A stretch of 64,000 bases of DNA from Candidatus Aenigmatarchaeota archaeon (GTDB lineage Archaea > Aenigmatarchaeota > Aenigmatarchaeia > QMZP01): the NCBI GenBank assembly GCA_043824495.1, contig JBDRSV010000005.1:7955-71954 (forward strand), read 5' to 3'. The position numbers and the translations under genes were made by a program. Shown here piece by piece: positions 6,675-60,675 of this stretch; within the stretch, counting starts at the first letter, position 1, and every line of letters starts with the position of its first letter. The notes under the pieces were generated by a model. That model worked only from the letters and a program-made list of their open reading frames with translations. It was not told where the DNA came from and ran no database searches.

Positions 6675-6785
6675 CTATTGTTCTGTGTGGTGTTGGTTCC
6701 TAGGTTACAATGCCAATATATCTGCAAGGAAATTTTCCTCAAAGATGTCTAAAGTCAATTGGCGTGAAAGTGTGGAGCATGATAT
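6675..6785 (-). repeat. Cassette 5'-leader module, copy 1 (read on minus strand: ATATCATGCTCCACACTTTCACGCCAATTGAC ... hairpin ... TTGGCATTGTAACCTAGGAACCAACACCACACAG)
   Basis: The core TCATGCTCCACA/TTCACGCCA matches 39325..39359 at 21 identities with 1 mismatch and 1 indel. The downstream TTGGC..GTA..TAGG..CAAC block is also shared. Confidence 0.7.
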
Positions 6786-6799
6786 TTTGACTATTACTA

Positions 6800-6822
6800 T
6801 TGGATAGTGAATATTTCATAGT
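6800..6822 (+). repeat. Right copy of the imperfect direct repeat bracketing cassette 1
   Basis: See 1086..1108. Confidence 0.4.
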
Positions 6823-6873
6823 AAACTTTATATTATTTAGCATTGAGAGTCGTAACAGTAAATATAGAAATTT

Positions 6874-6936
6874 ATAGAAATTACTTGATTTTCAATAGAA
6901 TTTACTTGATTCTAAATAGAAATTACTTAGAATTAT
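6874..6936. repeat. Three tandem 21-nt repeats (ATAGAAATTACTTGATTTTCA-like)
   Basis: Copies start at 6874, 6895 and 6916 with period 21, and there is a partial copy just upstream. The array lies between cassette 1 and the 3' end of gene 6933..7658. Confidence 0.7.
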
Positions 6937-7658
6937 ACAAATTCTTTCTGTGCCAGTTCATAGGCATCTGGCGTGCCTATATCAATCCACTTTCCATCTA
7001 GAATAAATCCGTATGTTGGTGTTTTCTGTCTTAACCAGTCTATAAAGAAACCCATTGTATCTTTATGGTTTCCTTCACTCAGATATTCTTCTATCAATTT
7101 TTTTGTGTTTTCAGGGAAGAAATAAACTGCAGCTGAAGCTAAAGTGCTTTTAGGATTTTCAGCTTTTTCAACAAAGTCTATTATTTTTTTATTGTCATCG
7201 AGTTGAACTGTTCCCATTTTCCTTGCTTCTACCATACTTACGTTGCTTAATCCAACAATTGGTGTTTGTTTCTCTTTGTAAAACATGAAAATTTCTTGGA
7301 GATTGTCTTGGAATATATTATCTCCACCAACAACCAAGAAATTACCATCAACAGATTCTTGGTTCATAAAATACTTCAGAGCACCAATAGAACCTAATTT
7401 TTCTTCTTCTGTTGCAACTGGTTCTACAATAAGCTGGATATCCTTTGAATATTCAAACCCAGAGAGCCATTGTTCCATTATAGGACCAAATTTAGAGTTT
7501 GTAGAAACATATACTTTTTCTAGATCCAAATGCTCCAATTTCCTTAGAGTTCTCTCTAACAAAGTCTTATTGGCTACCTTGAGTAGTGGTTTGGGTGTAT
7601 TTTCTGCTATTTTGCCCATTCTTTTTGCATGTCCACCAGCTAATACCAAAGCTTTCAT
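6933..7658 (-). CDS. sugar-phosphate nucleotidyltransferase (NTP_transferase family)
   Basis: N-terminus MKALVLAGGHAKRMGKIAENTPKPLLKV carries the typical G-rich nucleotidyltransferase signature. Confidence 0.8.
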   Translation of the reverse strand: MKALVLAGGHAKRMGKIAENTPKPLLKVANKTLLERTLRKLEHLDLEKVYVSTNSKFGPIMEQWLSGFEYSKDIQLIVEPVATEEEKLGSIGALKYFMNQESVDGNFLVVGGDNIFQDNLQEIFMFYKEKQTPIVGLSNVSMVEARKMGTVQLDDNKKIIDFVEKAENPKSTLASAAVYFFPENTKKLIEEYLSEGNHKDTMGFFIDWLRQKTPTYGFILDGKWIDIGTPDAYELAQKEFV

Positions 7659-7839
7659 ATTGGGTAATAATTGTATATGAACTAATTAATGTTTTGCGTA
7701 ACTACCGCCAATCACGAGGGAGGGCAAACCTTTATATACCATAGATTTAATTTATAAGATACCCATAAAACGATCGCAGTGAGACGGCTATATAATCTAG
7801 CATCTAGCTTGTTTAGTGATCATGTACGGAGGTAATCGT

Positions 7840-8073
7840 ATGGCAGACGTAGATTTCAAAACTGTAAAAGCTGAAGAAATTAAATTCGGTAAGAACAACT
7901 TCCTTGAAGTTGCAAGGAAAAAGGCTGTTACCGAAGAGGGTGAGACTGAATTCATTGCAATATCAAGAGGATTTTTCTCACCAGATGGATCCAAAAGATT
8001 CAAGAAGTCAATTGCACTTCCTGATGAAAAGGAAATCCGCGATTTCGTATCCAAAAAAATATTAGAACTGTAA
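7840..8073 (+). CDS. small PC4/YdbC-like ssDNA-binding-fold protein (tentative)
   Basis: The start was moved to MADVDFKTV (GGAGGT SD). The pattern FGKNNFLEVARKK...EFIAISRGFFSPDGSKRFKKSIALP resembles PC4-like proteins. Confidence 0.45.
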   Translation: MADVDFKTVKAEEIKFGKNNFLEVARKKAVTEEGETEFIAISRGFFSPDGSKRFKKSIALPDEKEIRDFVSKKILEL

Positions 8074-8212
8074 AAACAACAAAATTGGTTAATACAAGAG
8101 ATGATGAAGAACACGCTGCGAAGCTGACTTAGTCTCTGTTTTTCTTATTATTTTTCCTGTATCACATGTAGCTATTTATTGCAGTGTTCATAAGAATTAA
8201 CATAGTGATTTT

Positions 8213-9862
8213 ATGAAGGATCTGATAATGAAATATGTATTGCAGAATGCAATTTTTTATGAAGGTAAAGCTAATCCAAATGCTATTCTGGGTAAAATTC
8301 TAGGATCAGAACCTGCTCTACGAAAGAATCCAGATAAAGTGAGAAAAGAAATCGAAGAAGTTGCTAAAAAAGTAAATAGTATGGATTTAGCTAAACAAAA
8401 AGAAGAATTGAAAAAAATCGATCCCGAAATGCTTGTTAAAGAGGAGAAAGAGCAAGAAGAGCTGCCACCTCTGAAAGGAGCTGTGGAAGGTAAAGTTGTA
8501 ACAAGATTTGCTCCTTCACCTACTGGTCCTTTGATGATTTATCATTTACTAAGAGCAGTTTATTTGAATTATTTGTATGCACAGAAGTATAACGGAAAAT
8601 TTATTGTTAGAATTGAAGATACAGACCCTGGTAATATCAAAAGAGAATTCTATGAGTGGATAAAAGAAGATTTGAAAAACTCTGGTGTTAAATGGGACGA
8701 ATTGTTTCACCAATCCGATCACATGGATTTGTACTACAAAAATGCAGAGAAATTGATACAAAAGAATGATGTATATGCTTGCTTCTGTAATCCTGACCAA
8801 TTCAAGAAACTCAAGAATAAAAAAATGAATTGTCCTTGTAGAGATGAAGGTAAAACAAAATTCCATTGGGATAAAGCTGTTAGAGGTGATTATGCAGAAG
8901 GAGAAATGATTTTTAGATTGAAAACTTCTATGCAAGATCCTAACCCAGCTATAAGAGATCCTGCATTATTCAGAATAAATAAAAAACATCATCCCTTTAA
9001 AACAATAAAATACAAACTATGGCCTCTGTACAATTTTGCTAATACAATTGATGATCACGAGATGGGTGTTACTCATGTATTCAGAGGAAAAGAACATGAA
9101 CATAACACGACAATACAGAAGATGATTTATGAGAAACTAGGCTGGAAAATGCCTTTTGTGATTAATTTTGGTATGATATATCTTCCAGGAGTCAAGTTGC
9201 ATACTAGAGATATCAAGCAAATGATTGCAGAAGAAAAGTTCACCGGATGGGATGATGTGAGATTACCAACAATCAGATCCATTATTAGACGAGGATTTCA
9301 ACCAGAAGCTATTAGAGAGCTAGCGATTTCAAGCGGTTTAACAAAAACAGATATAAACGTGAGCTGGGAGAAGTTCGAAACTCTTAATAGAAAAATAATA
9401 GATAAAAAAGCTAACAGATACATGGTTGTAAAATCTCCGGTTAGATTAGTAATCAAAGATGCTCCTTCTATGAATCAGGTGAGAGAAAAGATACACCCAG
9501 AATCTGAGAAGACTAGGATCATTCCAGTTAATCTGAAAGAGATATACATAGAGAAAGAAGATTACATAAGACTAAAGGATAGAGATTTCAGATTGAAAGG
9601 TTTGGGTAATATCAGAGTCACAGGTAAAACTGGACGGTATTTAGGTAACGAGATCTACAAAGACATGCATAAGATACAGTGGGTATCTAAACCTCATGCA
9701 GAGGTTATTATTCTAAAGGGTGACGATGTCATTCATGGTATTGGTGAACCTGGGTTAAAGAAACTACACCCAGGTCAAATAATCCAGATGGAGAGAATTG
9801 GTTTTGGTAAGGTAGATGCAAGAACAGATAATGAGATTGTCATCATCTTTGCTCATAGGTAA
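8213..9862 (+). CDS. gltX: archaeal-type glutamyl-tRNA synthetase
   Basis: RFAPSPTGPL...FIVRIEDTDP, THVFRGKEH, GWDDVRLPT and ERIGFG blocks are colinear with archaeal GluRS as I recall it. The archaeal N-terminal extension is present. Confidence 0.85.
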   Translation: MKDLIMKYVLQNAIFYEGKANPNAILGKILGSEPALRKNPDKVRKEIEEVAKKVNSMDLAKQKEELKKIDPEMLVKEEKEQEELPPLKGAVEGKVVTRFAPSPTGPLMIYHLLRAVYLNYLYAQKYNGKFIVRIEDTDPGNIKREFYEWIKEDLKNSGVKWDELFHQSDHMDLYYKNAEKLIQKNDVYACFCNPDQFKKLKNKKMNCPCRDEGKTKFHWDKAVRGDYAEGEMIFRLKTSMQDPNPAIRDPALFRINKKHHPFKTIKYKLWPLYNFANTIDDHEMGVTHVFRGKEHEHNTTIQKMIYEKLGWKMPFVINFGMIYLPGVKLHTRDIKQMIAEEKFTGWDDVRLPTIRSIIRRGFQPEAIRELAISSGLTKTDINVSWEKFETLNRKIIDKKANRYMVVKSPVRLVIKDAPSMNQVREKIHPESEKTRIIPVNLKEIYIEKEDYIRLKDRDFRLKGLGNIRVTGKTGRYLGNEIYKDMHKIQWVSKPHAEVIILKGDDVIHGIGEPGLKKLHPGQIIQMERIGFGKVDARTDNEIVIIFAHR

Positions 9863-10981
9863 TTAAAGAACAAAAACACCGCTTTCTACTATTTCTTCTG
9901 CATAAGCTTCAGCAGCTCTAATTGATTCAGATAATGAAGCACCACCTTCAAGTCCTCTTTCAACCATTCTTCTAACTATATGAGGCAGGTTTCCATGAGC
10001 TTCATATGTTCGAGGTAAATGAGTTCGCCACTGGAAAAGCTCAAGGCCTATCTGATTAGCCTCATCTAATCTAGTATCAAGATTAAGCATGGTATTCAAG
10101 TTAATATCTCCTGGTCTATGATTATAATAACCATCTTTGATTCCTTCTAATACCCATTCTCTTGTATATCTCTTACCTACCCCGAACTCTCGACCACTCC
10201 ATGGATGACGTTTATTCAAATTCCATCCATTACCACTTATGTCCCTCATGGTTAATATTTCTTCCATTACAGCTTTAACTTCTACATGTGTACCATCTGA
10301 ATCAAATGATGCACAATCCAAATCCACCGGGACTACTCTTATTCTATCATCATCTTGATATACCACAAAATTTCCAGGGTGTGCATTTTCTAATCCCCAT
10401 TCAACACCAGAATCTTTCATTAATCTCATTGTGTATCCTGCATCACGTCCAAGACTAACTAGAACATCTCTATACTCTGTAAACGGTGAAAGACCAACAA
10501 AAGAAACAAACATTTCTCTAAAATCTAAGTATTTGAGAAGTTCATCTAATCTTGTATCACCCTCTATTTCAAAAATTGTTGCTCTTGTTCCCTTAGATCC
10601 ATTATAATCATAATAACCAAGTGGATTCATAACATACGTTATTCCAGCTTCTGTTTTTAACCTCTCAGCTAGTCGTTCTGCATGTTCGATCTCATTGTCA
10701 GCATTTGGTGTAAGCTGTCTTCCATATGGTTCGTCATCATTCCAATTACTAGGAGTTTCCGCAAAAACACAACCTTTAATTCTGTATAAATTATCTAAAA
10801 CTTCGGCTAATCCAGAGCGTTTGCCACTTTCTAACCCCACTAAATTATATTCATCTCTATCTGAAATTATTGCTACTGGTCTAGAGAGTGATTCTGGAAG
10901 GCTCTTACCGGGTAATAAAGTTACAGAACCATCTACGTAACTTAAGCCCCTTTGTCCTCTGGGGGAAAACAATCTACTCAT
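9863..10981 (-). CDS. hypothetical protein with protein-kinase-like motifs
   Basis: 372-aa ORF. ENAHPGNFVVY ... VVPVDLDCA resembles the HxxN catalytic loop and DxD of APH/kinase-fold proteins. Confidence 0.5.
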   Translation of the reverse strand: MSRLFSPRGQRGLSYVDGSVTLLPGKSLPESLSRPVAIISDRDEYNLVGLESGKRSGLAEVLDNLYRIKGCVFAETPSNWNDDEPYGRQLTPNADNEIEHAERLAERLKTEAGITYVMNPLGYYDYNGSKGTRATIFEIEGDTRLDELLKYLDFREMFVSFVGLSPFTEYRDVLVSLGRDAGYTMRLMKDSGVEWGLENAHPGNFVVYQDDDRIRVVPVDLDCASFDSDGTHVEVKAVMEEILTMRDISGNGWNLNKRHPWSGREFGVGKRYTREWVLEGIKDGYYNHRPGDINLNTMLNLDTRLDEANQIGLELFQWRTHLPRTYEAHGNLPHIVRRMVERGLEGGASLSESIRAAEAYAEEIVESGVFVL

Positions 10982-11070
10982 AAAACATAATGTTATCGTT
11001 AAATTTATAAATTGACATCACGATTTCAGAGAAGAGCGCTTTTGCTCATAGGTAATTCTTTGTAAATCAA

Positions 11071-13155
11071 TCACGAAGTAACTAAGAATTGAGACATTGC
11101 GTCTTCTATTAAGCCACCGAACATTGTGCTCACACCAAACATGACTAGGAAGTATAACACCAAACCAACTATTATCATTTTTCCTATATTGTTCCATTGA
11201 GCAACTGGGTTGTCTCCTTTTGATATCTTTGTTAAGAACATTCCGAGTATCATGATAACTTGGATCAAGTATATACCAATTATGAGTTGGAATAATGCTG
11301 GTGATGTGGAAGGTGCTCCAACAATCAGTAGAGAAATATCAATACCTAGAGAATCCTCGAATCCAGCATTTTGCATCAGCTGGCCCATTGTTACTAGTAC
11401 TTGTATTATGATATCAGCCATTGCAACTATCATACCAGTGATTATGGGTGTCAAGAAATATGCCTGAAACTTCATTGATGATGTTGTTTCAGTGAGTAGC
11501 TCTCTTATGTATTCTTGTGTTTCTCTTATGTTTTTCAAATACCTAGATATTCTAAGCATACTGTCTGCTGCATAAGTAACGCCTTTCTTAGATGTGTCTA
11601 TTACAGCATACATGATATTGTTGATTATTTTTGATGGGTAGTATTGAAGAGCTCCCCATTTTTTATGGAATAGTGAGTCTTCGAATGTCATACCAAGAGT
11701 CTTAATATTAGCTAATGATCTTTTGAATAAACCAGCTATCTTCAAATCTTTTACATCATCTATAGCTCTCTCAATAGCCACTTCTGTAGGAGTTCCTCCT
11801 GAAATCTTATTTCCTAATTTGAACAACGCTAATTCGAATTCGCTTTCTATACTCTCTATTTCTTCTTGTATTCTCTGTTTCTGGTAATTTGACAACAACA
11901 AGAAAGCTGATATAGCAAAACCTAACCCCATTATGAAAAATGATGACATTAACATTGTAAATTGTGGATTTGTATCTAGAACAGGAATTGTTCCTGCTCC
12001 TGTTGGGGGGAATAATAATTCAGGTGTGGTCCCAAAATATATTATTGGAAGTATCCAGAAACCGATTATTATCAACAATGAAATTGGCCATGCTGGTATA
12101 GATCTACCTTTGATAGAGAAGCTGTGGTTCTTAGGTACATCTGGATGTTTGGATATATCTATCTGCGATAGAGTTACAGGTCTCTTGTTTAATGTATTCA
12201 GAATAAACCACGTGATGATAATAGGTAATGCTATGTCATATCCTATTATGAAATGTATTGGTGATACTAAATCTGACAAGAACACTGCGGCCATTGGAGC
12301 CATTATTGTTCCCATTATAGGTAACACAATACCCATCATGTGGATAACCATGACAGGCATTAATAAATCCTGTGCATAGTGCTTCATTCTTGTCTTTGTT
12401 CCGGTTAAAATAACTTCTAGAGCTTGATCAAGTTCTTTTTTTGCTCTGTCTGGTGTCTGAGATTGAGAGTCTCTTATCAGTCTCAAAGCCTCTGCAAATT
12501 CCTCATTCTCAAATTTCCATCTTATTATATAGTCATCAAGAGCGTCGTTGGCTGAATAATATTTTCTCATCTCTATATCCCAGATAAGCTTTCTCAAATC
12601 CCATGCCAATGCTCCAGATACATTTGAAGCTGCGAATCTTAGAGCACGCTCCATATTAGGAGAAACTCTCATGGACACAACCATGTATAGTATAGCAAGA
12701 ACTACTTGAGAGCTTGCTTGAATACGTAGAGTTTTTACTCTACTCGATGGGTATTTGTAGAAATAATATGCAACAAGGAAACCCATTGCTGCTATAACAA
12801 GACCTATCATTACAGAAACAATTCCTGTGATTATGAATGTTACACCTAGGAGAATGAAGAATATTATTGTTGTGGCCATCAGACCCATTATTTCCGCTGG
12901 TGTTATGTCCATCTCTGTAAAGAGGATAGCAGATTCTAGTTTTTCTTTAGATCCTCTATCTGGATCTATTTTAGCCATACTACCTACAGCTTTCACAAGA
13001 ACTTCATACCAGCCAGGTTTCTCTTCGTCCCCTTTCTTGTATAATCTATACTCTCTTGTTGTGACTACTGGTTCTTCTTGATAATAAGATCTTTCGGCTG
13101 GACGATAAGAAGGTGGCCTTTGTATCTTCCTCTTTTTCTTCCCAAACAAACCCAT
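11071..13155 (-). CDS. polytopic membrane protein, probable T2SS-F/FlaJ/TadC-family pilus assembly platform
   Basis: 694 aa with two repeats of a soluble helical segment followed by TM helices, as in GspF/FlaJ-family proteins. Confidence 0.5.
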   Translation of the reverse strand: MGLFGKKKRKIQRPPSYRPAERSYYQEEPVVTTREYRLYKKGDEEKPGWYEVLVKAVGSMAKIDPDRGSKEKLESAILFTEMDITPAEIMGLMATTIIFFILLGVTFIITGIVSVMIGLVIAAMGFLVAYYFYKYPSSRVKTLRIQASSQVVLAILYMVVSMRVSPNMERALRFAASNVSGALAWDLRKLIWDIEMRKYYSANDALDDYIIRWKFENEEFAEALRLIRDSQSQTPDRAKKELDQALEVILTGTKTRMKHYAQDLLMPVMVIHMMGIVLPIMGTIMAPMAAVFLSDLVSPIHFIIGYDIALPIIITWFILNTLNKRPVTLSQIDISKHPDVPKNHSFSIKGRSIPAWPISLLIIIGFWILPIIYFGTTPELLFPPTGAGTIPVLDTNPQFTMLMSSFFIMGLGFAISAFLLLSNYQKQRIQEEIESIESEFELALFKLGNKISGGTPTEVAIERAIDDVKDLKIAGLFKRSLANIKTLGMTFEDSLFHKKWGALQYYPSKIINNIMYAVIDTSKKGVTYAADSMLRISRYLKNIRETQEYIRELLTETTSSMKFQAYFLTPIITGMIVAMADIIIQVLVTMGQLMQNAGFEDSLGIDISLLIVGAPSTSPALFQLIIGIYLIQVIMILGMFLTKISKGDNPVAQWNNIGKMIIVGLVLYFLVMFGVSTMFGGLIEDAMSQFLVTS

Positions 13156-13262: not shown

Positions 13263-13370
13263 TATCATATTCCACTCTCAAAAAATCTACAATTTGTATC
13301 AGATAAACAAAGCGTTTAATCTGAAAATGTCTTCATGGACCCATAAATCAACGCACACAAAACACGAAAT
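13263..13370 (+). repeat. Cassette 5'-leader module, degenerate copy 2
   Basis: TATCATATTCCACTCTCA resembles TATCATGCTCCACACTTTCA. It is followed by the hairpin CAGATAAAC-aaagc-GTTTAATCTG and a CAACGCACACAAAAC block resembling CAACACCACACAGAAC of copy 1. Confidence 0.45.
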
Positions 13371-13522
13371 AACACAAAGTGCATTGTTAGCTTAAGCTAT
13401 GGAGAATGAGAAGCCTGAGAGTGATTTTTTCTGTCTTCTGTAAAGAAATTACCAGACTTTTGTCTTAGACGAGAGTCTTTCGCCAATAGAAAAAAATGAT
13501 TCATTGATATGGGGGGTGAACA

Positions 13523-14353
13523 ATGATATCGTGTAAATCAAAACAGGTGGATTCAACACGGCTTGACGCTAGGCCGAAAAAGCGACGAATGCCAGTTCAG
13601 GTCTCGCGTGCCTGGGATGCGTATTTCAGCTCCGGCGACCCTGGTGTTCGTCAGAACCTTCTCAATCATTACCTGCCGCTCGTATGCAATGTGGCGGGTA
13701 GGATGGCTCTAGGCTTTCCCAAAGCTGTTGAGCTGAATGATTTGATTTCCACAGGCACGATCGGCTTGTGCCAGTCCTTAAAGAACTTCGATCCTAAACG
13801 AGGCGTCAAGTTCGAAACCTTTGCGGTTCCCCGAATCCGTGGTGCAATTCTCGACGAGATGCGCAGCTTGGATTGGGTGCCGCGTTCCACACGCTCGAAA
13901 GCACGTAAGATTGATCGAGTCACAACTCAGATCGAACAACAACAGGGACGTGTGTCAATGCATAATGAACTCGCTGTCCTTCTGAAGATCCCGCTGGACG
14001 ATCTGCTAGTGGTGCTGACAGATATTTCGGCATCAAGGCTTATGTCCTTGGATGAATTGGTATATCGAGAGGAGGACAATAGGCAGGTTCCGAGAGTCGA
14101 GACACTCGAACTTCCTGTGAGAAGAGATGCCTTGAGAGAGGTCGAACGCAGAGAGCTAAAGGTATTCCTCATTAACGCCATTTCTACTCTCAACGAGCAA
14201 GAGACACATGTCATTGGCTTATACTACTACGATGAGCTTACCATTCGTGAGATTGGCGAACTCATGAATCTCTCGGAATCCCGAATCTCGCAGGTTCACA
14301 CTAGGTCTGTGGAAAAGTTGCGAAGAATGGTGCGCGATAGATTCGGATACTGA
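13523..14353 (+). CDS. fliA: bacterial FliA/WhiG-type (sigma-28) RNA polymerase sigma factor
   Basis: Region 2 reads LNHYLPLVCNVAGRM...DLISTGTIGLCQSLKNFDPKRGVKFETFAVPRIRGAILDEMR. Region 4 reads LNEQETHVIGLYYYDELTIREIGELMNLSESRISQVHTRSVEKLR. GGGGGGTGA SD is present. Confidence 0.85.
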   Translation: MISCKSKQVDSTRLDARPKKRRMPVQVSRAWDAYFSSGDPGVRQNLLNHYLPLVCNVAGRMALGFPKAVELNDLISTGTIGLCQSLKNFDPKRGVKFETFAVPRIRGAILDEMRSLDWVPRSTRSKARKIDRVTTQIEQQQGRVSMHNELAVLLKIPLDDLLVVLTDISASRLMSLDELVYREEDNRQVPRVETLELPVRRDALREVERRELKVFLINAISTLNEQETHVIGLYYYDELTIREIGELMNLSESRISQVHTRSVEKLRRMVRDRFGY

Positions 14354-14443: not shown

Positions 14444-14620
14444 ATGCTCCTATGTCAGGAGTGTCACCAAAAACGGGGATGTTATTGGGGTATTCACCCA
14501 CACACTACCAATGGGTCTTGTGGTTGTTGTGGTACGCAAACAGCTTGCGTCGAATGTAATACCCTAGAAACATCTTCACGTCCGATCTCTATGGAAGCCA
14601 CCGAGAATTTCATCGGCTAA
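14444..14620 (+). CDS. 58-aa cysteine-rich protein (not in ORF track, below its length cutoff)
   Basis: AAGGAGGG lies 4 nt before the ATG. Translation MLLCQECHQKRGCYWGIHPHTTNGSCGCCGTQTACVECNTLETSS... contains 9 Cys. Its position right after a sigma gene suggests a zinc-binding partner or anti-sigma factor, which is inference only. Confidence 0.45.
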   Translation: MLLCQECHQKRGCYWGIHPHTTNGSCGCCGTQTACVECNTLETSSRPISMEATENFIG

Positions 14621-14643: not shown

Positions 14644-14670
14644 GTGTGTCCCATAACACACTTGGTTCTT
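14644..14670 (+). terminator. hairpin GTGTGT-cccata-ACACAC followed by a T-rich tract
   Basis: A 6-bp perfect stem lies immediately after the last cassette-2 ORF and runs into TTGGTTCTTTATATT. Confidence 0.4.
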
Positions 14671-14694
14671 TATATTGTCTAATTAGAGGGATAT
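14669..14694 (-). repeat. Cassette 3'-flank motif, copy B (reverse complement: ATATCCCTCTAATTAGACAATATAAA)
   Basis: 23/26 identical to copy A. It ends 2 nt before the ATG of backbone ORF 14697. Confidence 0.85.
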
Positions 14695-14696
14695 GA

Positions 14697-15449
14697 ATGA
14701 AAGAAATAAAAAACTTACTATCTAAGTATAAAAGATCTGATATGGCAACTGAAGGATATAAAAGAGTGGTTTTGGGTGCAGGAACTATTGAACCTCATCA
14801 TCTTCTTGTTGTTTATTCTCTTTTCGAACCCGGCAGTGAAGTACAAGCAGTTGATCATAAAGGACGACTTTTAGTAAAGAGAGGCAAAAGATCTCATTAT
14901 AAACTACTTACAACCGATTCTGGTCTCCTGGTTGCGACAAGTGAAGATATACCACTACCAAATGAAGAGCCTTTAGCTTCGAGTTATACAGATGCACATG
15001 TAGGAAGTACAACACCTGATGCTATTGATAGGATCATGAGTGATTGGTTAAAATATTTAGCAGAAACATTTGGAAATCAATATCAAACAGCTCTTATAGC
15101 TGATAATCTTAGTATGTTTTCTTTAGGACGTTCTGTATACAAACCTGATGGAGATAATTCTATCGTTGTTAATACTTCTCAATATAGCAATAAGAAACCA
15201 GTCAGTACATTGAGATTGCATTCAGTTGATGGTATTCAAGATGATATATTTGATACAGGCGGATGCAAAAATCCTCTTGATGTTATGAATAAACTATTTG
15301 AAGAGGAGCAATCCACCTTCGCTGCTGTTGCTGCTTTTGATGGATCTGTGGAACCTGGAGCAGAAATGAATAGAGGAGAACCGCGACATAGAATAATACC
15401 TCCTGGTAGCGGAGAATGGCAGTTACATATAAGAAATAGACACAAGTAA
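14697..15449 (+). CDS. hypothetical protein
   Basis: 250-aa AT-rich ORF with no recognisable motif. Confidence 0.6.
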   Translation: MKEIKNLLSKYKRSDMATEGYKRVVLGAGTIEPHHLLVVYSLFEPGSEVQAVDHKGRLLVKRGKRSHYKLLTTDSGLLVATSEDIPLPNEEPLASSYTDAHVGSTTPDAIDRIMSDWLKYLAETFGNQYQTALIADNLSMFSLGRSVYKPDGDNSIVVNTSQYSNKKPVSTLRLHSVDGIQDDIFDTGGCKNPLDVMNKLFEEEQSTFAAVAAFDGSVEPGAEMNRGEPRHRIIPPGSGEWQLHIRNRHK

Positions 15450-39324: not shown

Positions 39325-39430
39325 ATTCATCATGCTCCACAATTCACGCCATTTAAGTCTTTTGACTGATTATTACCAAAATATCTGGTAATAGTTTGGC
39401 TTTTGTATTTTAGGTAAAACAACGGAAGAC
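39325..39430 (+). repeat. Cassette 5'-leader module, copy 3 (ATTCATCATGCTCCACAATTCACGCCATTTAAGTC ... hairpin ATTACCA-aaatatc-TGGTAAT ... TTTGGCTTTTGTATTTTAGGTAAAACAACGG)
   Basis: See 6675..6785. The conserved blocks have the same 37-nt spacing, and that interval holds a different inverted repeat in each copy. Confidence 0.7.
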
Positions 39431-39487
39431 TACTAAAGTCTTCACATCATAGAGAAACGCTTAGTTTTGAGAATATGGGGGTGTGAA

Positions 39488-41269: not shown

Positions 41270-41434
41270 ATGGGATTCTGGTTAAGATCTGCTGATGATG
41301 GTTCAGAAGGTCTTTCGGTTCTCGAGATAGTGGGAGTTGCTATCATCGCTGGAATCGTGTTGGTGGCAGCTATTAGTGTGCCTATTATCATTTTTTCCCC
41401 TAAGATCAATAATCAGAGAAACAAAACCATATGA
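41270..41434 (+). CDS. 54-aa Flp/Fap-pilin-like small hydrophobic protein (tentative)
   Basis: AGGAG SD is present. In MGFWLRSADDGSEGLSVLEIVGVAIIAGIVLVAAISVPIII..., the G-x4-E followed by a hydrophobic helix resembles Flp prepilins. Confidence 0.35.
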   Translation: MGFWLRSADDGSEGLSVLEIVGVAIIAGIVLVAAISVPIIIFSPKINNQRNKTI

Positions 41435-41460
41435 GAAGATGTGAATTTTGCTCTGATTGT

Positions 41461-41486
41461 TTTATATTGTCTACTTAAAGGGATAA
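41461..41486 (-). repeat. Cassette 3'-flank motif, copy C (reverse complement: TTATCCCTTTAAGTAGACAATATAAA)
   Basis: 23/26 identical to copy A. It lies 49 nt upstream of tRNA-Ser. Confidence 0.85.
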
Positions 41487-41535
41487 AATAGAATGAAAAA
41501 TAACTTAAATACGGCAGTGTATATTCTTCTTATAT

Positions 41536-41617
41536 GCCGGGATGGCAGAATGGTTAATGCGCACGACTGGAAATCGTGTGCCCTTTGGGCTTGGGGGTTC
41601 GAATCCCTCTCCCGGCG
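41536..41617 (+). tRNA. tRNA-Ser (anticodon GGA), class II with long variable arm
   Basis: Hand fold: acceptor GCCGGGA/TCCCGGC, anticodon arm CACGA-CTGGAAA-TCGTG, variable arm GCCC-ttt-GGGC, T arm GGGGG-TTCGAAT-CCCTC. Confidence 0.85.
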
Positions 41618-41759
41618 TTTCTTTATTTAATAAGGTCACAGAAATAAACAAAAGATCTAAATAATGTATTTTAATGTGCCCTTACAGAAAATGTATGCAT
41701 GGGCACCAAATTAAACAAAAATAGATAATTTTATATATTATTGTGCCCATATATAAAAT

Positions 41760-42698
41760 ATGGTTTATTTAGAGAAGATTCAGAGAAGAGACAAAACTTA
41801 TTACTACGTCACAAAAAACTTTAGGATCAACGATAAGAAATGGAAAAAAATAAGAAAATATGTAGGTAACACTCCTCCTTCAAAAGAAGACACAAAAAAA
41901 GCAATAAAGGAGATTGAGAGAGAAGCAATAGAAAGAAACCTGAAGAAGTCCTCTTCTAAGTATAATTACCTGAGCAATGAAGAAGCGGAAAAGTTGCAGG
42001 ACTTGAAAGAGATTTTTAACAAATGGTACGGAAAGCTGACTGGTATTGCGAAAAAAAAATATGAAGAGGATTTTGTTGTAAGATTCACATATAATTCGAA
42101 TGCTATTGAAGGCAATCGTTTAAGTCTTCGTGAAACAAGTATGATTTTAACAGAAAATATAATACCTTCGGGTGCTATACCTAATGATTACAATGAAACT
42201 ATCAACTCAAAAGACTGCTATGAATTCATGAAAGAGTATAAAGGAGAATTCAATCAGAAATTTCTACTCAAGATCCAGGAGCTTCTCACAAAGAATACTA
42301 ATTGTAGGATTACAGGAAGATACAGGGATCATGAAGTTAGGATTTCTGGTTCTGAATGGATTCCTCCTCCACATAAAAAAGTCAAAGAGGAAATGAGAAA
42401 GGTTTTTCAATGGTACTATTCTGCTAGTAAGAAGTTACATCCTGTGGAGCTCGGAGCAATTCTGCATAATAAATTAATAAGAATTCATCCATTCTCTGAC
42501 GGAAACGGGAGAACATCAAGGGTTGTAATGAATTGGATATTAATGAGGAGTGATTTCCCTATGGTTTACATAGAATTAAAAGATAAGGCGGCGTATTATG
42601 ATGCTATTGAACAGGGAGACAAAGGAAAAGATGATGCAATAGTACATTACATTACCTCTACTCTTATGAAACAGCACACGTTTAAACCGGAAAATTAG
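41760..42698 (+). CDS. Fic/DOC-family protein (AMPylase-type)
   Basis: The canonical Fic motif HPFSDGNGRTSR is present. Confidence 0.85.
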   Translation: MVYLEKIQRRDKTYYYVTKNFRINDKKWKKIRKYVGNTPPSKEDTKKAIKEIEREAIERNLKKSSSKYNYLSNEEAEKLQDLKEIFNKWYGKLTGIAKKKYEEDFVVRFTYNSNAIEGNRLSLRETSMILTENIIPSGAIPNDYNETINSKDCYEFMKEYKGEFNQKFLLKIQELLTKNTNCRITGRYRDHEVRISGSEWIPPPHKKVKEEMRKVFQWYYSASKKLHPVELGAILHNKLIRIHPFSDGNGRTSRVVMNWILMRSDFPMVYIELKDKAAYYDAIEQGDKGKDDAIVHYITSTLMKQHTFKPEN

Positions 42699-42809: not shown

Positions 42810-44174
42810 CTAAACTCTCCGATACAGGTTAATAGTAAATGAATCTCCAAAATGAAGTTTTGAATTGAAAGTCTTGTTAAGGTAGTATTTTCCTGGAAGT
42901 ATATCCTCTATGTCTCTTGAGAGATCAGGAGTAAAGAACCCATCTAAAACAATGATATCAAAGAATCTATTATCAACCGCTTCTTTAAAATCATTAAATG
43001 TCGATAGAGTGTCCCCATCATAATCTAAGTAGAATGTTGCATGAGTTTGCTTATTTGGTTCTCTCATAAAATAATATATATATGAATTTGATTCTCCAAG
43101 AATAATATTAGCATCGGGCATGCTTCTTATATAATCCACTGGTTCAGATATATTTGGATACGAACGGTCTAAATAATACACAAAAAATCCAGATGATATT
43201 ACAAAGGCAATCAAAACAATACCCCCAATTTTTACTCGTAGTCTTACAATTCCAGCAGCCATGAGAGGAGAGAGAAAAATAAATGGATATGCCATGTGCT
43301 TAAACATTGTATACTCAAAATTGAAAGTGAATACATGAAAAATAAACATTAAGAGAGATCCGAATAACAAATATTTCCATTCCTTGATCCTATTCTTTGC
43401 CAATAATGCCAAAGAGAAGGGAATGACAAAGTAGAAAAGAATACTAATAAATCTCGTAATATCGATTTGAGCTAATGAATTTAGATGCTTATCAGAGAAA
43501 AATGATAATAATGATATCAAAGAAGAAAAGAACAATATAGCATAAATAGAAAGAAATAATAAAAATACAATCAAGAAGTATAGGCCCTTCTTTTTATTTT
43601 TAGAATAAATGAATGGGAATAAGACTACTGTATATATTATTGCAATATATTTTGATATTACTGAGAAGAAAAATGATATCGGTGATAGATAAAATCCTTT
43701 ATTTTTTGATCCAGCAATTGCAAAGTAAAAACCAGCAGATAGGAAAAAGATGGAGAATATTTCAAACGATACCATTCTACTGACAAATATGAATGGCGCA
43801 TTTAAAACAAATATGGAAAGAGATACAAGAGCTAGCTTTCTATCTAATAGTTCTCTAGATGTAAGATAGACAAAAAATGAAGTCCCAGTAGCTAAAATTA
43901 CACTGAGCAAGCGTGCTGCAAAAAGTCCTCCGATTAAATCCATTATTCCATAAATTAATGGGAAAAGAGTACTACCAAATATATATCTTGGAGGATCGCC
44001 ACCAAAATCATAAATATCCCGTAACTCATTCCCTATGATAAGATACTGTGACTCATCAGTGAAAATAGTATTGAAATTCAGATTAGCAGCCTCGAAAAGG
44101 AAGAACAGAACAAGTATGATAACAAGGATGTATTTGGCATCAGTTCTTTGTATCCATTCAGGCACCGAATTCAT
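42810..44174 (-). CDS. polytopic GT-C-like (PMT_2/ArnT-like) membrane glycosyltransferase (tentative)
   Basis: About 11 TM helices precede a soluble C-terminal domain. An acidic DE motif (FTDESQY) lies in the first loop. Confidence 0.5.
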   Translation of the reverse strand: MNSVPEWIQRTDAKYILVIILVLFFLFEAANLNFNTIFTDESQYLIIGNELRDIYDFGGDPPRYIFGSTLFPLIYGIMDLIGGLFAARLLSVILATGTSFFVYLTSRELLDRKLALVSLSIFVLNAPFIFVSRMVSFEIFSIFFLSAGFYFAIAGSKNKGFYLSPISFFFSVISKYIAIIYTVVLFPFIYSKNKKKGLYFLIVFLLFLSIYAILFFSSLISLLSFFSDKHLNSLAQIDITRFISILFYFVIPFSLALLAKNRIKEWKYLLFGSLLMFIFHVFTFNFEYTMFKHMAYPFIFLSPLMAAGIVRLRVKIGGIVLIAFVISSGFFVYYLDRSYPNISEPVDYIRSMPDANIILGESNSYIYYFMREPNKQTHATFYLDYDGDTLSTFNDFKEAVDNRFFDIIVLDGFFTPDLSRDIEDILPGKYYLNKTFNSKLHFGDSFTINLYRRV

Positions 44175-44202: not shown

Positions 44203-44249
44203 ATCTAATGTTCCATTTGGGCTTGGGGGTTCAAATCCCTCCTCCGGCG
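44203..44249 (+). repeat. Duplicate of the 3' part of tRNA-Ser (att-like direct repeat / tRNA remnant)
   Basis: CCATTTGGGCTTGGGGGTTCAAATCCCTCCTCCGGCG matches 41581..41617 at 33/37, and weaker similarity extends about 10 nt further upstream. No 5' half is present. Confidence 0.65.
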
Positions 44250-44302
44250 TCTTTTCTATATCAGACCTAGTTATATAAAATTTACTATGTTTAATCTTTT
44301 AC

Positions 44303-54951: not shown

Positions 54952-54984
54952 AAATAGAAAGAATTGAAAGTCTTTTTAGTGTTA

Positions 54985-57081: not shown

Positions 57082-57088
57082 TAACAGA

Positions 57089-57110: not shown

Positions 57111-57153
57111 CGCGTTTCTATTCATTGTTTTCTTATTAGAAAATCTTGAACAT

Positions 57154-57179
57154 ATATCCCTTTTATTTGACAATACAAA
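57154..57179 (+). repeat. Cassette 3'-flank motif, copy D: ATATCCCTTTTATTTGACAATACAAA
   Basis: 23/26 identical to copy A. It lies 72 nt from the start of backbone gene 54985..57081. Confidence 0.85.
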
Positions 57180-57213
57180 GGGGATGGTCCATCACTGTAG
57201 ACCATTAATCCCC
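57180..57213 (-). terminator. stem-loop immediately after the FadB-like stop codon
   Basis: GGGG-ATGGTC-catcactgta-GACCAT-taat-CCCC. On the transcribed strand it is followed by TTTGTATT, the start of the 3' motif. Confidence 0.45.
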
Positions 57214-57218
57214 ATAAG

Positions 57219-59303
57219 TCAGACTTTCATGACTTTGTCGCATTCACGTCCGACGCGTCCACCTCGGCATACTTCGGATATCATGAAATGAGCAGAATGA
57301 TCTGCTTGGCGAGATATGGAATCGTTCAAATTACATCCACACGCTTCTTGTATACAGTTCATGATAGCCTTTCTTGCAAATTCCGTGCTAGCATTGTCAG
57401 TGTCTGGCAGGTTAGTGATACTCAGTGGCACATCTGTCAGGCGGTCAGTCTTCAGATTTCTTTCCGTGAGACCATGATCACCGCCCGTAGCAACCTTCCA
57501 TGCCATTTCAAGCGCACGTGTCATCGGAGCAGCGTGGTCGATCAGCCATCCCACAGCCTCGGATGCATCAATAGAATGTCCACTCAAGAGCATGTAGATG
57601 ATTTTAGGCCAATCAGTTCTACGTGCCTTGCGAAATGGCCAGTGGCATCCTTCCATGCCAGGGACAACCGGAAGCGTCACCTCTGGCATGCCGAGCTTTG
57701 CATCATTAACTGAAATCAGAAAGTGACAATGCATGAGAAGCTCAAGCATACCACCTAGACAGCGCTTGCCATTGACAAACCCAACGGATACCTTGAACTT
57801 ATCATTGAGCCTTCTGGCTGTACGAGACCACTGCATGGATATTCTGTGTCCAGTATGTACATTCTCAAGCGCAGGATAGAACTCGCTTGTGTCCGCGCCG
57901 ACTAGCTGAGTGGAGAGATGGAAGTCGCCGGAGACAATCACGCGTTCGATTCCTTCGGCTTTCAGCCAATCAATGGCTCGGTTGAGTTCAGCGTCGACAT
58001 CGCTGTTGTAACTCTCGCGACTTATGGCGATGACACCAACTGTTCCATCATGTTCTGCGTTGACGTACAACTGCTGCCATTCTGGTGTGTCCATATGACC
58101 AAAGACACTCGGACACCAGCAGACGCTCGCTGCTTCTGGATGTGACAGGTGATAAGATTCCACGGTCCTGATCACATTATCCGGACCAAGTCCACGAATG
58201 ACAGCGAGTATACCGTGATTGAACTGAGCACAGAGTTCACCGATGGCGTTGATGTGGGAGAGATGGCCGCGATTTTCATGAAGCATGAGACTGGTCATTT
58301 GGAACAGAGGACCGAGAATCCATGTTTTGAACTCGTCAACTCCGGCTGTATCCAAACTCCAGTTCACAAGAGGACGGAAGTGATCTGGTGGATACCAGTC
58401 TTGTCTACTTTCCTTATGTTCCATCAACTCAGGAGTTGGCGCGAACAATTCAGCACCATAATGCTCATGTAAGTGGTGGAGACATGACCAGGTAAGGAAG
58501 TTCGCACCAGCCGCACCGATCGCGTCATGCGCTCGGAACGGGTTCGGACCAAGCAACTTGCGGATAAATTTGTCGATCTTCCAGTAGGGCATGTTGCTGG
58601 CCTGGTGATAACGCAATCCGGCGAGCGTCAGGCCGCAGAACAAGACATCGAGAACAAACGACCATTTGTCAGCAACAGGAATCGGGATCATACCCAAAGC
58701 CCAGAAGAGCTTATCGGTAGATGTGTCATCTCCCACAGTCTCCCACACTTTGCTGACCTCATGTGGGAATGCCGGATGTGCGATGCCAACTCCCAGTTCT
58801 GAACTTGGGAATCCCGAGGTTACGGATCTGATGTGGATACCCGGGAATGCTGCTCTGAAGAGACCGTAGTGATCCTTCTTGACACTGAGAATCTCTGGAA
58901 TTGCTTCCAACAGAAATTTCGGATTGAATTGGCCGAGTTCACCTGGAAGAGTAGTTCCGTCATAACTCATACGGATAATACTCCTCATGATCTCATCAGC
59001 CTTTGACCTACCAAAGGCGCGTACCAATCCTGGGTACTGTCTCCCAATGCCATCAGGTGCACTGGGGAAATCTAGTCCGATGATACGAACACCGTGTGGT
59101 TGAAGCCGGGAACCGAGTTGCATTGTCTTGCCAGCACCAACAATTCCATTGGCGCCGGAGATGACAAGTGATCCTCGATTACTTGCTTTACCAAACACAT
59201 TCGAAACTGCATCGGATGCAGTGACAGGTAATCCATTCTTGAAGATCCCGAGAACAGTTCCGAGACCCAATGTTTGGATTGTTGAAGTTCTCATCATTTT
59301 CAT
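57219..59303 (-). CDS. fusion protein: N-terminal 3-hydroxyacyl-CoA dehydrogenase-like, C-terminal enoyl-CoA hydratase/crotonase-like
   Basis: It has the Rossmann motif ISGANGIVGAGKT and the C-terminal crotonase pattern CLGGMLELLMHCHFLISVNDAKLGMPEVTLPVVPGMEG. Confidence 0.75.
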   Translation of the reverse strand: MKMMRTSTIQTLGLGTVLGIFKNGLPVTASDAVSNVFGKASNRGSLVISGANGIVGAGKTMQLGSRLQPHGVRIIGLDFPSAPDGIGRQYPGLVRAFGRSKADEIMRSIIRMSYDGTTLPGELGQFNPKFLLEAIPEILSVKKDHYGLFRAAFPGIHIRSVTSGFPSSELGVGIAHPAFPHEVSKVWETVGDDTSTDKLFWALGMIPIPVADKWSFVLDVLFCGLTLAGLRYHQASNMPYWKIDKFIRKLLGPNPFRAHDAIGAAGANFLTWSCLHHLHEHYGAELFAPTPELMEHKESRQDWYPPDHFRPLVNWSLDTAGVDEFKTWILGPLFQMTSLMLHENRGHLSHINAIGELCAQFNHGILAVIRGLGPDNVIRTVESYHLSHPEAASVCWCPSVFGHMDTPEWQQLYVNAEHDGTVGVIAISRESYNSDVDAELNRAIDWLKAEGIERVIVSGDFHLSTQLVGADTSEFYPALENVHTGHRISMQWSRTARRLNDKFKVSVGFVNGKRCLGGMLELLMHCHFLISVNDAKLGMPEVTLPVVPGMEGCHWPFRKARRTDWPKIIYMLLSGHSIDASEAVGWLIDHAAPMTRALEMAWKVATGGDHGLTERNLKTDRLTDVPLSITNLPDTDNASTEFARKAIMNCIQEACGCNLNDSISRQADHSAHFMISEVCRGGRVGRECDKVMKV

Positions 59304-60505
59304 TTGCCACTGCTCCCTTCATCAACCTTGAAGATCGCCGCTATACCAACATCACCGGCAGCACAACCGAAGATGAGAACATATCCGCCACCGAGCGAGA
59401 CCGCCTCTACAAAGGATTCAATCAGAACTCTCGTAAGAGTCGGTCCTTGCGGATGACCCCATACAAGCGGGCAGCCGGTTTTGTTCATGTTGTGCCAGTC
59501 GTAGTCCATGACCTTCGCGAAGATGGCGTCGTTGACTGCGAACGGATTGTGGTTTTTCACCACGATCATATCAGCCATTGTCAGTCCGGTGCGGCGCAGA
59601 AGTTTTTGTACCGCCAACGCAGGTGCTTCGGGCATGAGACTCGGATGCGCGCGTACTTCGGTTTTTGCGATAAAGGTAATATCGATCTCTGGTTGCGAAC
59701 TGAAGTCTGAAACTCTCTCCTTGTTCACAACCAGTAGGCACGCCATGCCGTCAGATGCATGTGTCTGTGTGCCGGTGGTCACGCAGGTATCGAGTTCGAA
59801 AAGGCGGTTCAATCCATCCATCGTCAGCTTGCGGACGCCGAAATCGTCGTCGATTGTTCCCATGGGCTTGCCCTGGAGATTGAGGATTTCGAGCGGGACA
59901 AGCACCTTGTCGAGAAAGCCAGATTCTTTGGCTTGAAAATACTGCTCATGCCGATGGAAGGCGATCTCGTCCACTTCTTTACGGTTGATCTTGTGCTTCC
60001 TTGCGGCCTCTCCTCCGCAAGCAATCATTGCTTTTCCGGTTGCCGGATCGAAACCAAAGTTGTCCCATACATCGGCGAGTGCTTCTGTCCGACGATAACT
60101 GCGACGCTCTGGGAAGACACCAGCCGGAGAGTCACTTGTCCGGTCGAATGTCAGAACGCCGACGACATCGTGCGAACCACTGTTCACCTCTGCACCCGCA
60201 AGGAGCACTGCCTGTAGACCTGTAGCACATGCCTGTTCAACGTGGAATCCTGGGATTCGAATTCCCATACAACTGGCCACCAACGGGGCATTCCAGAATT
60301 TCCAGTGCCACGGGATAGTTGATCCGATGACAAGGTACTCGAGCAGACTCTTGGGCACTTTCCTTAACCCAAGAATCCTGTTCATTGCTTCCCCGGCGAA
60401 CTGGCCTGGATTGACCTCCGCCAGGGGTGAAGTTTGCCAGGCAGGGAAATAACTACTCCCCCAAGTCCCGTATGGGATCCTGGCATTTGGGTACATCGGT
60501 TGCAT
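59300..60505 (-). CDS. thiolase-family acyl-CoA acetyltransferase
   Basis: The active-site Cys context is HVEQACATGLQAV and the C-terminus carries GCAAGDVG. The SD is GGAAGGAGAGGG. Confidence 0.75.
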   Translation of the reverse strand: MQPMYPNARIPYGTWGSSYFPAWQTSPLAEVNPGQFAGEAMNRILGLRKVPKSLLEYLVIGSTIPWHWKFWNAPLVASCMGIRIPGFHVEQACATGLQAVLLAGAEVNSGSHDVVGVLTFDRTSDSPAGVFPERRSYRRTEALADVWDNFGFDPATGKAMIACGGEAARKHKINRKEVDEIAFHRHEQYFQAKESGFLDKVLVPLEILNLQGKPMGTIDDDFGVRKLTMDGLNRLFELDTCVTTGTQTHASDGMACLLVVNKERVSDFSSQPEIDITFIAKTEVRAHPSLMPEAPALAVQKLLRRTGLTMADMIVVKNHNPFAVNDAIFAKVMDYDWHNMNKTGCPLVWGHPQGPTLTRVLIESFVEAVSLGGGYVLIFGCAAGDVGIAAIFKVDEGSSGK

Positions 60506-60566
60506 AAACCCTCTCCTTCCGTAGAAAAAGACCTAAACAAAACTAACATCAATTTGTCTGTCGTTT

Positions 60567-60675
60567 ACGTATGATGTCGATTCCTAAGATGCAGTACCAA
60601 TTCCAGTATCGAACAGATGTCGACAATAGTCAGCGTCAGCTGATTGGCAATTATATTGTTTTGGGAAGCATGAAT
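60567..60675 (-). repeat. Cassette 5'-leader module, degenerate copy 4
   Basis: On the minus strand, ATTCATGCTTCCC...GCCAAT resembles ATATCATGCTCCACA...GCCAAT. CTTAGGAATCGACATCATACG matches CCTAGGAACCAACACCACACAG of copy 1 at about 15/21. Confidence 0.45.

Follow-up and report, generated by a model that had tools for sequence, protein, structure and literature searches.

Integron cassettes form tandem arrays, classically beside intI and attI, and are usually promoterless, with a promoter of the platform driving their expression; their attC site is an imperfect palindrome with the paired core sites R'' (RYYYAAC), L'', L' and R' (GTTRRRY). Members of the IS200/IS605 group have subterminal hairpins whose conserved sequence is common to all copies and to both ends, use TnpA (a Y1 HUH enzyme) and insert immediately 3' to a target of four or five fixed nucleotides next to the left end. 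Helitron/IS91 elements start with 5'-TC and end with 3'-CTRR, carry a hairpin at a distance of 10-12 nt from the 3' end and use a fixed short target. In this study, we describe four GC-rich islands (C1-C4) in a stretch of 64,000 nucleotides from a Candidatus Aenigmatarchaeota archaeon (contig JBDRSV010000005.1, positions 7,955 to 71,954; hereafter the window), which share a 5' leader module and each close with a hairpin, a T-run and the 23-nt motif TRTATTGTCWAHWTARAGGGATA. With their shared ends the islands are discrete cassettes, as had been supposed in an earlier sequence-only reading of the same DNA, and have the appearance of a portable gene-cassette family not described before. At roughly even confidence, we propose that the 5' module is the left-end, transcribed leader of non-autonomous, Aenigmatarchaeota-specific gene cassettes, and that it combines the transcript start and a 5' stem-loop with the boundary of the unit.

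Functionally, the islands would be most like integron cassettes, by analogy as small foreign units mobilized in trans. The likeness to integron cassettes, including those of the archaeal integrons described by Ghaly et al. (2022; PMC9668308), covers small units of promoter-to-terminator size with miscellaneous and often foreign cargo, toxin-antitoxin genes, the lack of a recombinase within the unit, conserved bases combined with a variable hairpin at the boundary, acquisition across domains of life and occasional tandems. In contrast to integrons, the units described here are dispersed singly and have no intI/attI array, adjacent pairs being present only at L035 and L004 (L-numbers denote loci from other genomes or metagenomes). 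They also carry a promoter-proximal leader of their own, with a predicted start ~30 nt after a TATA element, and have two unlike ends. An attC identity was rejected, as neither the 5' module nor the 3' hairpin with its motif has R'', L'', L' and R' boxes. The 23-nt motif does not appear in the supplementary text of PMC9668308, which may not list attC sequences, and no paper mentioning the motif was found in the literature.

Non-autonomous IS200/IS605 derivatives are similar in their asymmetric ends, hairpins at both ends, lack of a visible target duplication and need for mobilization in trans, and the distance from the left boundary to the hairpin foot (~19 nt in three units) is also comparable. 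The right end, however, runs ~27-30 nt past its hairpin and the left and right hairpins differ. Identity with IS200/IS605 ends was rejected: C1, C3 and C4 have dissimilar sequences inside their 5' hairpins, no two 3' hairpins are alike, and the three columns before the core have no conserved base in 16 units, so there is no fixed target. Neither TnpA nor TnpB is encoded by the open reading frames (ORFs) of the window and of the short loci scanned. With Helitron/IS91 the units share a 3' hairpin before a conserved terminus, the lack of inverted repeats or target duplication and a variable captured cargo. A 5' TC is present as well, but the 3' end is GGGATAT instead of CTRR and lies ~27-30 nt after the hairpin, a longer distance than in Helitrons, the flanks are variable without a fixed dinucleotide, and a Rep/helicase was not found; this identity was likewise rejected. 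Stem-loop leaders in the 5' untranslated region (UTR) that stabilize mRNA resemble the units in having a stem-loop ~20 nt into the predicted transcript and a terminator hairpin closing the unit. Such leaders are gene-specific, whereas here one leader family stands on unrelated, foreign cargo in different genomes.

The window is an AT-rich piece of archaeal chromosome (~35% GC). Its backbone genes include MCM, an archaeal-type ThrRS editing domain, the MC1 chromatin protein, NFACT and GatDE, and the backbone proteins are archaeal and nearest to Aenigmatarchaeota; for a 694-amino-acid backbone protein, the nearest homologues are named Aenigmatarchaeota with at most 65% identity. The four islands, of 46-51% GC, interrupt this backbone on both strands, 6.5-25 kb apart and separated by backbone genes. 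Both junctions of every island rejoin the same backbone, which makes a chimeric assembly unlikely. In addition, Logan contigs of run SRR26275509 show C1, C2 and C4 in contexts identical to the window; these contigs reach less than 1 kb beyond it.

All strings on which the sequence-only reading relied were recovered at the positions it gave. The leaders of C1 and C3 are ~70% identical over 110 nt and score far above dinucleotide shuffles, with z=11.8, and z=7.1 once block A is removed (0/300 shuffles as high). C1 and C4 resemble each other weakly (z=3.7-3.9; 1-2/300 shuffles as high), the similarity of C3 and C4 is not significant against the same shuffles, and the C2 leader stays at shuffle level with C1, C3 and C4, having only a 9-nt core in common with them. 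The C2 leader does match that of the metagenome locus L035 (z=5.1; 72% identity over ~100 nt), where the cargo is very different. As its partner is L035 and not C1, C3 or C4, at least two leader subfamilies exist. Cassettes 2 and 4 had been taken for degenerate versions of the module; related strings are indeed present in both, but with two or more subfamilies they are not simply degenerate copies. The comparison with shuffled controls, by which the module could have been refuted, separates C1-C3 and, weakly, C1-C4 from chance, but neither C3-C4 nor any pairing with C2.

The exact block A, TCATGCTCCACA, occurs in the window in C1 and C3 alone, and an extended block A pattern had zero occurrences in shuffles. 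With at most one mismatch, block A is found at four places in the 246 kb on both strands, all upstream of a motif and on the motif strand: C1, C3, L005 (exact; 877 nt upstream of the motif) and L010 (691 nt upstream). An nhmmer profile of the module gave no additional copy in the window or in 33 related loci, and hence no copy upstream of ordinary backbone genes across the whole window; wide occurrence at such genes had been named as one ground for abandoning the module. An ORF on the opposite strand over the core of L010 is not a general feature, and the rest of the L010 module is weak.

Beyond the closest copies, the core TCATRYTCC is present in 16 alignable units of Aenigmatarchaeota. Counted in the non-ORF DNA that precedes the motif, a relaxed form, TCAT[AG][TC][TC]C[CA], has 14 occurrences on the motif's own strand and a single one on the other, which is C1 viewed from C2. 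The columns after the core, which were not forced by the pattern, are biased as well (C in 10/16, A in 12/16 and A in 10/16 units). The units of L020 and L011, with GC-rich cargo in AT-rich hosts, were spotted by eye; their cores are TCATATTCACAC (L020) and TCATATCCGTTA (L011). In 6/16 units, a TATA element that agrees with TTTAWATA at 7/8 positions or more begins 26-34 nt before the A of the core's ATG (shuffle p=0.001), as illustrated by TTTAAATT at -30 in C3 and GTTATATA at -29 in C4. The enrichment is confined to -34 to -26, with no peak in neighbouring windows, which for the 16 units as a set agrees with archaeal core promoters, where the TATA is centred ~26-27 nt before the start. At the position predicted from the TATA, the core contains ATGC. 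In the promoters of methanogen stable-RNA genes, where the TATA is called 'box A', this tetranucleotide is the 'box B' initiator. In AT-rich hosts, GC rises from ~20% to 40% exactly at the core, remains at 43-50% up to the motif and then falls. The TATA position and the GC step together mark the core as the predicted transcript start and as the compositional left boundary. From its sequence context, then, the core is located where an archaeal transcript should start, and the module lies in the predicted 5' UTR; among a recombination site, a protein-binding palindrome and a 5'-UTR element, the options raised earlier for the hairpin, the last fits best.

The right boundary is equally sharp. The 23-nt motif has four copies in the window (0.01 expected), each at the 3' edge of a GC-rich island, and its position weight matrix (PWM) scores are bimodal, with 39-44 for the four copies and at most 4.6 elsewhere in the window. 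Searching one genome for each of 185,579 species, we found exact matches only in archaeal metagenome-assembled genomes, eight of them named Aenigmatarchaeota and two 'uncultured archaeon'. Metagenomes added 23 motif loci, and no viral contig locus carries the motif. A hairpin with z below -2 precedes 21 of the 34 unique motifs, the remainder being preceded by a C/T-rich T-run. At other loci, the gene upstream of the motif is usually co-oriented with it and the downstream neighbour is usually convergent at a distance of 2-40 nt, indicating that the motif belongs to the 3' edge of the upstream unit. The downstream neighbours of all four window cassettes are co-oriented with the cassette, unlike those in most other genomes. 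In C1, C2 and C3, a host-type BRE (transcription factor B recognition element)/TATA (GAAAG..AWWTAAA) for the next backbone gene starts within 5-15 nt after the motif; these promoter regions lie at 1075-1121 (C1), 14694-14745 (C2) and 41486-41535 (C3), and the next genes are MCM, a 250-amino-acid ORF and tRNA-Ser. A role of the motif as promoter of the neighbouring gene was rejected as a general explanation: neighbours elsewhere are mostly convergent, although 4/4 are co-oriented in the window.

Within the first portion of the leader, C1, C3 and C4 have a conserved stem, GCCA(AT)/(AT)TGG(C/T), that encloses 45-48 nt of unrelated sequence with a hairpin of its own; L005 has a shorter GCC...GGC version. 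The arm-to-arm folds of C1, C3 and C4 adopt this closed-stem structure and are more stable than shuffles (C1 p=0.036; C3 p<0.002, z=-4.8; C4 p=0.046). For the hairpin region of C2 the value is p=0.026, and the four domains combined by Fisher's method give ~1e-4. The layout of conserved block, variable hairpin and conserved block put forward by the sequence-only reading thus describes C1, C3 and C4, with the hairpin closed by the conserved stem; in the second leader subfamily this stem is not recognizable. Its notion of a structure kept while the sequence varies is plausible: each isolated domain beats its shuffles, though neither a consensus fold nor covariation accompanies this result. The absence of demonstrable covariation follows from the closing-stem bases being invariant except for one change, from G-C to G-U in C4.

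Table 1. Coordinates of the cassettes and of their parts in the window (+, forward strand; -, reverse strand).
Feature	Coordinates	Strand	Description
Cassette C1	1122..6782	-	~5.7 kb, 47.5% GC vs 32-36% in the flanks (GC profile)
C1 cargo			seven ORFs, including three FHA-domain proteins and one ORFan (Pfam, NCBIfam)
C1 5' leader	6597..6782	-	186 nt
C1 block A	6771-6782	-	TCATGCTCCACA
C1 string after block A	6760-6768	-	TTCACGCCA
C1 leader stem	6758-6763, 6712-6717	-	arms GCCAAT and ATTGGC; inner hairpin 6727-6739
C1 block B	6689-6704	-	
C1 3' module	1122..1164	-	hairpin 1149-1164, T-run, motif TATATTGTCAATTTAAAGGGATA 1122-1144
Cassette C2	13265..14693	+	1.4 kb, 46% GC
C2 5' leader	13265..13522	+	second subfamily
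C2 core	13265-13276	+	TCATATTCCACT, degenerate version of block A
C2 leader hairpin	13300-13323	+	CAGATAAAC/GTTTAATCTG
C2 cargo, sigma factor gene	13523-14353	+	fliA/whiG type
C2 cargo, zinc-ribbon ORF	14445-14620	+	58 amino acids, cysteine-rich
C2 3' module	14644..14693	+	hairpin 14644-14661, T-run, motif 14671-14693
Cassette C3	39330..41485	+	2.2 kb, 47.8% GC; tRNA-Ser 50 nt downstream
C3 5' leader	39330..39487	+	
C3 block A	39330-39341	+	TCATGCTCCACA
C3 string after block A	39343-39351	+	TTCACGCCA
C3 leader stem	39348-39351, 39397-39400	+	arms GCCA and TGGC; inner hairpin 39368-39396
C3 block B	39409-39425	+	
C3 cargo			three ORFs without assigned function and a small membrane ORF
C3 3' module	41411..41485	+	long hairpin 41411-41458, T-run, motif 41463-41485
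Cassette C4	57155..60673	-	3.5 kb, 50.5% GC
C4 5' leader	60506..60673	-	
C4 core	60662-60673	-	TCATGCTTCCCA, degenerate version of block A
C4 leader stem	60643-60648, 60596-60601	-	arms GCCAAT and ATTGGT
C4 block B	60573-60588	-	
C4 cargo, thiolase-like gene	59300-60505		
C4 cargo, 694-amino-acid protein gene	57219-59303		enoyl-CoA-hydratase-like region
C4 3' module	57155..57213	-	hairpin 57180-57213, T-run, motif TGTATTGTCAAATAAAAGGGATA 57155-57177

The units are 0.6-8 kb long and contain one to seven cargo genes of very different kinds. Across units, the cargo comprises FHA-domain proteins, ORFans, thiolase-like and enoyl-CoA-hydratase-like proteins, hisI, a pyrF-like gene, hicAB, tRNA-Met, HEAT-repeat, secreted and membrane proteins and a surface protein of 2111 amino acids. 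The 320-amino-acid ORF of C1 returned only itself in a search of 5.8 billion proteins, and PADLOC, used to look for defence systems among the cargo, gave stray weak matches only. A bacterial origin is evident for the sigma factor of C2, which is 69-71% identical to FliA/WhiG proteins, some of them named Zixibacteria. In one Zixibacteria-type genome the fliA context is flhA-flhF-flhG-fliA, and its similarity to the window is limited to the coding sequence; a single bacterial gene has thus been joined to a non-bacterial leader, zinc-ribbon ORF and 3' module. The archaeon, which lacks a bacterial RNA polymerase, carries this flagellar sigma factor gene in intact form. The zinc-ribbon ORF that follows it is not located beside fliA in the Zixibacteria-type genome compared, and a small zinc-ribbon or single-pass membrane ORF is also the last gene in C1, C3, L005 and L010.

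Several loci bear on the question of movement. L013 is syntenic with window positions 6933-13155 and contains a unit of 1 kb, consisting of a HAD-type phosphatase gene closed by the motif. The two genes on either side of this unit are direct neighbours in the window, where neither the phosphatase gene nor the motif stands between them. This presence and absence is only suggestive because the species are distant. In L035 (1-520), two units are arranged head to tail: a small AT-rich unit ends in a hairpin and a degenerate motif (406-429), and 75 nt later the core (505) opens an 8-kb GC-rich unit that encodes the 2111-amino-acid surface protein. In L004 (about 1500-2200, reverse strand), hicB-hicA lies between a degenerate copy of the motif, TATTTGGCCATTTTAGAGGGATAT, and a full one, with iterons of 10-11 nt just upstream (TTCCCGCAGA four times and CGCAGAAT three times). 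A tyrosine recombinase of 379 amino acids with a C-terminal zinc ribbon is encoded at 5059-6213 of the same locus, ~3 kb from hicAB; it is a candidate platform or enzyme for the cassettes, although L004 is the only locus where it was seen. No viral or plasmid carriers were detected; viral matches to partial patterns were unrelated, and the C1 leader had no counterpart among plasmids and phages by blastn.

Based on these data, a cassette consists of four parts. The core TCATRYTCC(A)CA sits at the predicted start, with its ATGC initiator ~30 nt after the TATA, and opens a leader of 100-290 nt whose first portion is the hairpin domain closed by the short conserved stem. One to seven cargo genes with Shine-Dalgarno sites, some bacterial in origin, follow, and the unit closes with the terminator-type hairpin, the T-run and the motif. 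Transcribed as proposed, the leader may act in RNA as an expression adaptor that supplies foreign genes with a defined 5' end, a 5' stem-loop and possibly a leaderless mini-ORF, and the core and the 3' motif would bound the unit that is copied between sites and genomes. More tentatively, and short of even confidence, Aenigmatarchaeota may own a platform for gene capture and expression that is unrelated to integrons. In it, foreign DNA such as the Zixibacteria-type fliA would be carried between the start-site leader with its stem-loop and the terminator with the end motif, and the cassettes would be moved in trans between intergenic sites and between genomes of the phylum by a recombinase, for which the L004 enzyme is one lead. 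DPANN archaea have tiny genomes, depend on other cells and carry many horizontally acquired genes, of whose vehicles little is known. If it is phylum-wide, the cassette format would provide a searchable handle on how foreign, even bacterial, genes are acquired and expressed, and its two end signatures permit a census in any metagenome. If the leader is an expression adaptor, it would in addition represent a natural portable module of promoter-proximal and terminator elements in archaea.

A number of observations weigh against this proposal. On the side of transcription, 10/16 units, including C1 and C2, lack a TATA with at least 7/8 matches at the canonical distance, and about half of the motif loci have no recognizable core in their available upstream sequence. 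As to the fold, the z-score of the whole leader is significant for C3 and L005 only and not for C1, C2 and C4, RNAalifold gave no consensus structure for the four leaders, and the hairpin shows no compensatory base changes, its inner hairpins not being alignable. Concerning movement, no target-site duplication (by inspection of the junctions), excised form or same-species pair of filled and empty sites was found, the closest relative having 65% protein identity; neither the window nor any cassette encodes a recombinase, transposase or reverse transcriptase; two other Aenigmatarchaeota with syntenic loci of 22 kb each have no motif there; and the L004-type recombinase is missing from every other locus fetched. 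With no recombinase identified, mobility is something that we infer. Finally, some motif-ended units hold ordinary-looking genes (pyrF-like, hisI, tRNA-Met) at host-like GC, and the architecture might be a type of transcription unit specific to this lineage instead of a mobile element.

The most serious competitor, which we nevertheless regard as rather unlikely, is that the stem-closed hairpin is a DNA recombination site that folds on the single strand in the manner of an attC site or an IS200/IS605 left end and is recognized by a recombinase encoded at another place, its position in the 5' UTR being incidental. A conserved stem base (GCCAAT/ATTGGC) around a variable interior of near-constant length (45-48 nt in C1, C3 and C4) would suit such a site, as would a distance of 18-19 nt from the start of the core to the foot of the stem in C1, C3 and L005, which recalls the left-end geometry of IS608. 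The cargo, miscellaneous and inclusive of hicAB as in integron cassettes, and the tandem or doubly flanked units at two loci, one of them 3 kb from a tyrosine recombinase, point in the same direction. Yet Rfam yielded no match for the module at the gathering score or at E values up to 5 (the window gave two tRNAs only), the boxes RYYYAAC and GTTRRRY of attC are missing, and the window cassettes are solitary and dispersed without an integrase gene. Hairpins that differ among copies in one genome are unlike IS200/IS605 ends, conserved target nucleotides before the core are lacking, the one candidate recombinase recurs at no other fetched locus, and in the second subfamily the stem cannot be recognized. 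Dispensing with mobility altogether, one could see the core and leader as a cis-regulatory region, either an operator or a 5'-UTR regulator, and the motif as a terminator-associated or insulator site of co-regulated accessory operons that recruit acquired genes. The core does lie at the predicted start, a place of action for archaeal repressors; the motif comes after terminators, and the gene next to it is convergent in most cases; and some units contain housekeeping-type genes. We consider this improbable, since the identity of the C1 and C3 leaders (~70% over 110 nt) and of the C2 leader with one from another organism (72%) speaks for copying and not for convergence of binding sites, motif scores are all-or-none without graded weak sites, and the compositional breaks match both ends; four unrelated foreign segments between identical ends would still require a mechanism.

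The two ends themselves have been read as imperfect terminal inverted repeats (TIRs) whose variants co-vary within a cassette, a relation that permutation tests place at chance. The strings in question, AATTGAC/GTCAATT in C1 (with ATATC and CTTT) and TTTAAGT/ACTTAAA in C3, are real, but amount to two anecdotes in AT-rich DNA. A helix between the 5' and 3' ends for RNA processing or circularization was rejected (RNAduplex, -13.6 kcal/mol for matched and -13.4 kcal/mol for permuted pairs, p=0.42), and so were cassette-specific DNA repeats as a general feature (Smith-Waterman, p=0.07-0.42 inverted and p=0.15-0.29 direct). A 'split promoter' or attL-like arrangement, in which the left part of the motif is repeated in the DNA just before the core, looked convincing by eye in C1, L005 and L006, but failed against shuffles (summed p=0.89) and was unremarkable with an anchored PWM. 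There remains the view that the units are transposons with short imperfect TIRs, the 5' core (TC)ATRYTCC being the inverted counterpart of the 3' GGGATAT and the 'interrupted inverted copy' of the sequence-only reading a diverged repeat, a view to which we give little credence. It draws on the second subfamily, where the left end aligns with the reverse-complemented right end at 15/20 positions in L035 and 18/26 in C2 and an ungapped PWM puts the inverted motif exactly at the core in L035 only (99.96th percentile), on the cores of L011 (TCATATCC) and L020 (TCATATTC) compared with ATATCCC at the other end, and on a score summed over 10 units with p=0.05 against shuffles. That sum is driven by L035 and C2, and the similarity is absent in most other units; permuted pairs show no cassette-specific relation, the main subfamily (C1, C3) can be matched only with two long gaps, target-site duplications are not visible, no transposase was found, and the similarity covers only ~7 nt with one constant mismatch. 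At most, the ends share a short ATATYCC/GGGATAT similarity, mainly in the second subfamily. Very improbable, finally, is that block A begins a leaderless mini-ORF (ATG CTC CAC, Met-Leu-His...) that regulates or assists downstream expression. An ATG stands at the predicted start in 13/16 cores, L019b (ATG CTA CAT AAC) and C3 (ATG CTC CAC AAT) both read MLHN with synonymous differences, and the mini-ORFs of C1 and C3 stop inside the hairpin. A 1-nt indel, however, puts C1 and C3 in different frames although their nucleotides are conserved, the peptides range from 4 to more than 30 residues without conservation past residue 3, C2, L010 and L018 have no ATG, and the variation has no three-base periodicity.

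Other features of the window were noted alongside the cassettes. Directly downstream of C3 (41535-44255), tRNA-Ser has a second copy of its 3' half (41577-41623) at 44209-44255, with 85% identity. Between the two copies lie a gene for a Fic-domain protein (41760-42698, +) and one for a PMT_2-like membrane protein of 454 amino acids (42810-44174, -); the region, which has no integrase, looks like the remnant of an element integrated in a tRNA gene. Three tandem 21-nt repeats with the core AAGTAAWTTCTAT are located at 6874-6928 (-), between the stop codon of a nucleotidyl-transferase gene and the start of C1, and this 13-mer occurs nowhere else in the window, exactly or nearly so. At 8097-8137 (+), the 41-nt sequence AGAGATGATGAAGAACACGCTGCGAAGCTGACTTAGTCTCT is conserved in L013 (about 1655-1700) amid intergenic DNA that cannot be aligned. 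Its termini form a stem (AGAGA/TCTCT), and within it ATGATGA resembles a C box and CTGA a D box; the sequence gave no Rfam report and is possibly a short C/D-box small RNA. A gene at 30712-32781 (+) encodes a protein of 689 amino acids made up of three DsbA/thioredoxin-like repeats (DNA repeats of 300 nt with 67-77% identity), and near it, positions 29004-29191 are taken up by coding tandem repeats with units of 12 and 21 nt, rich in AAGAGAAG.

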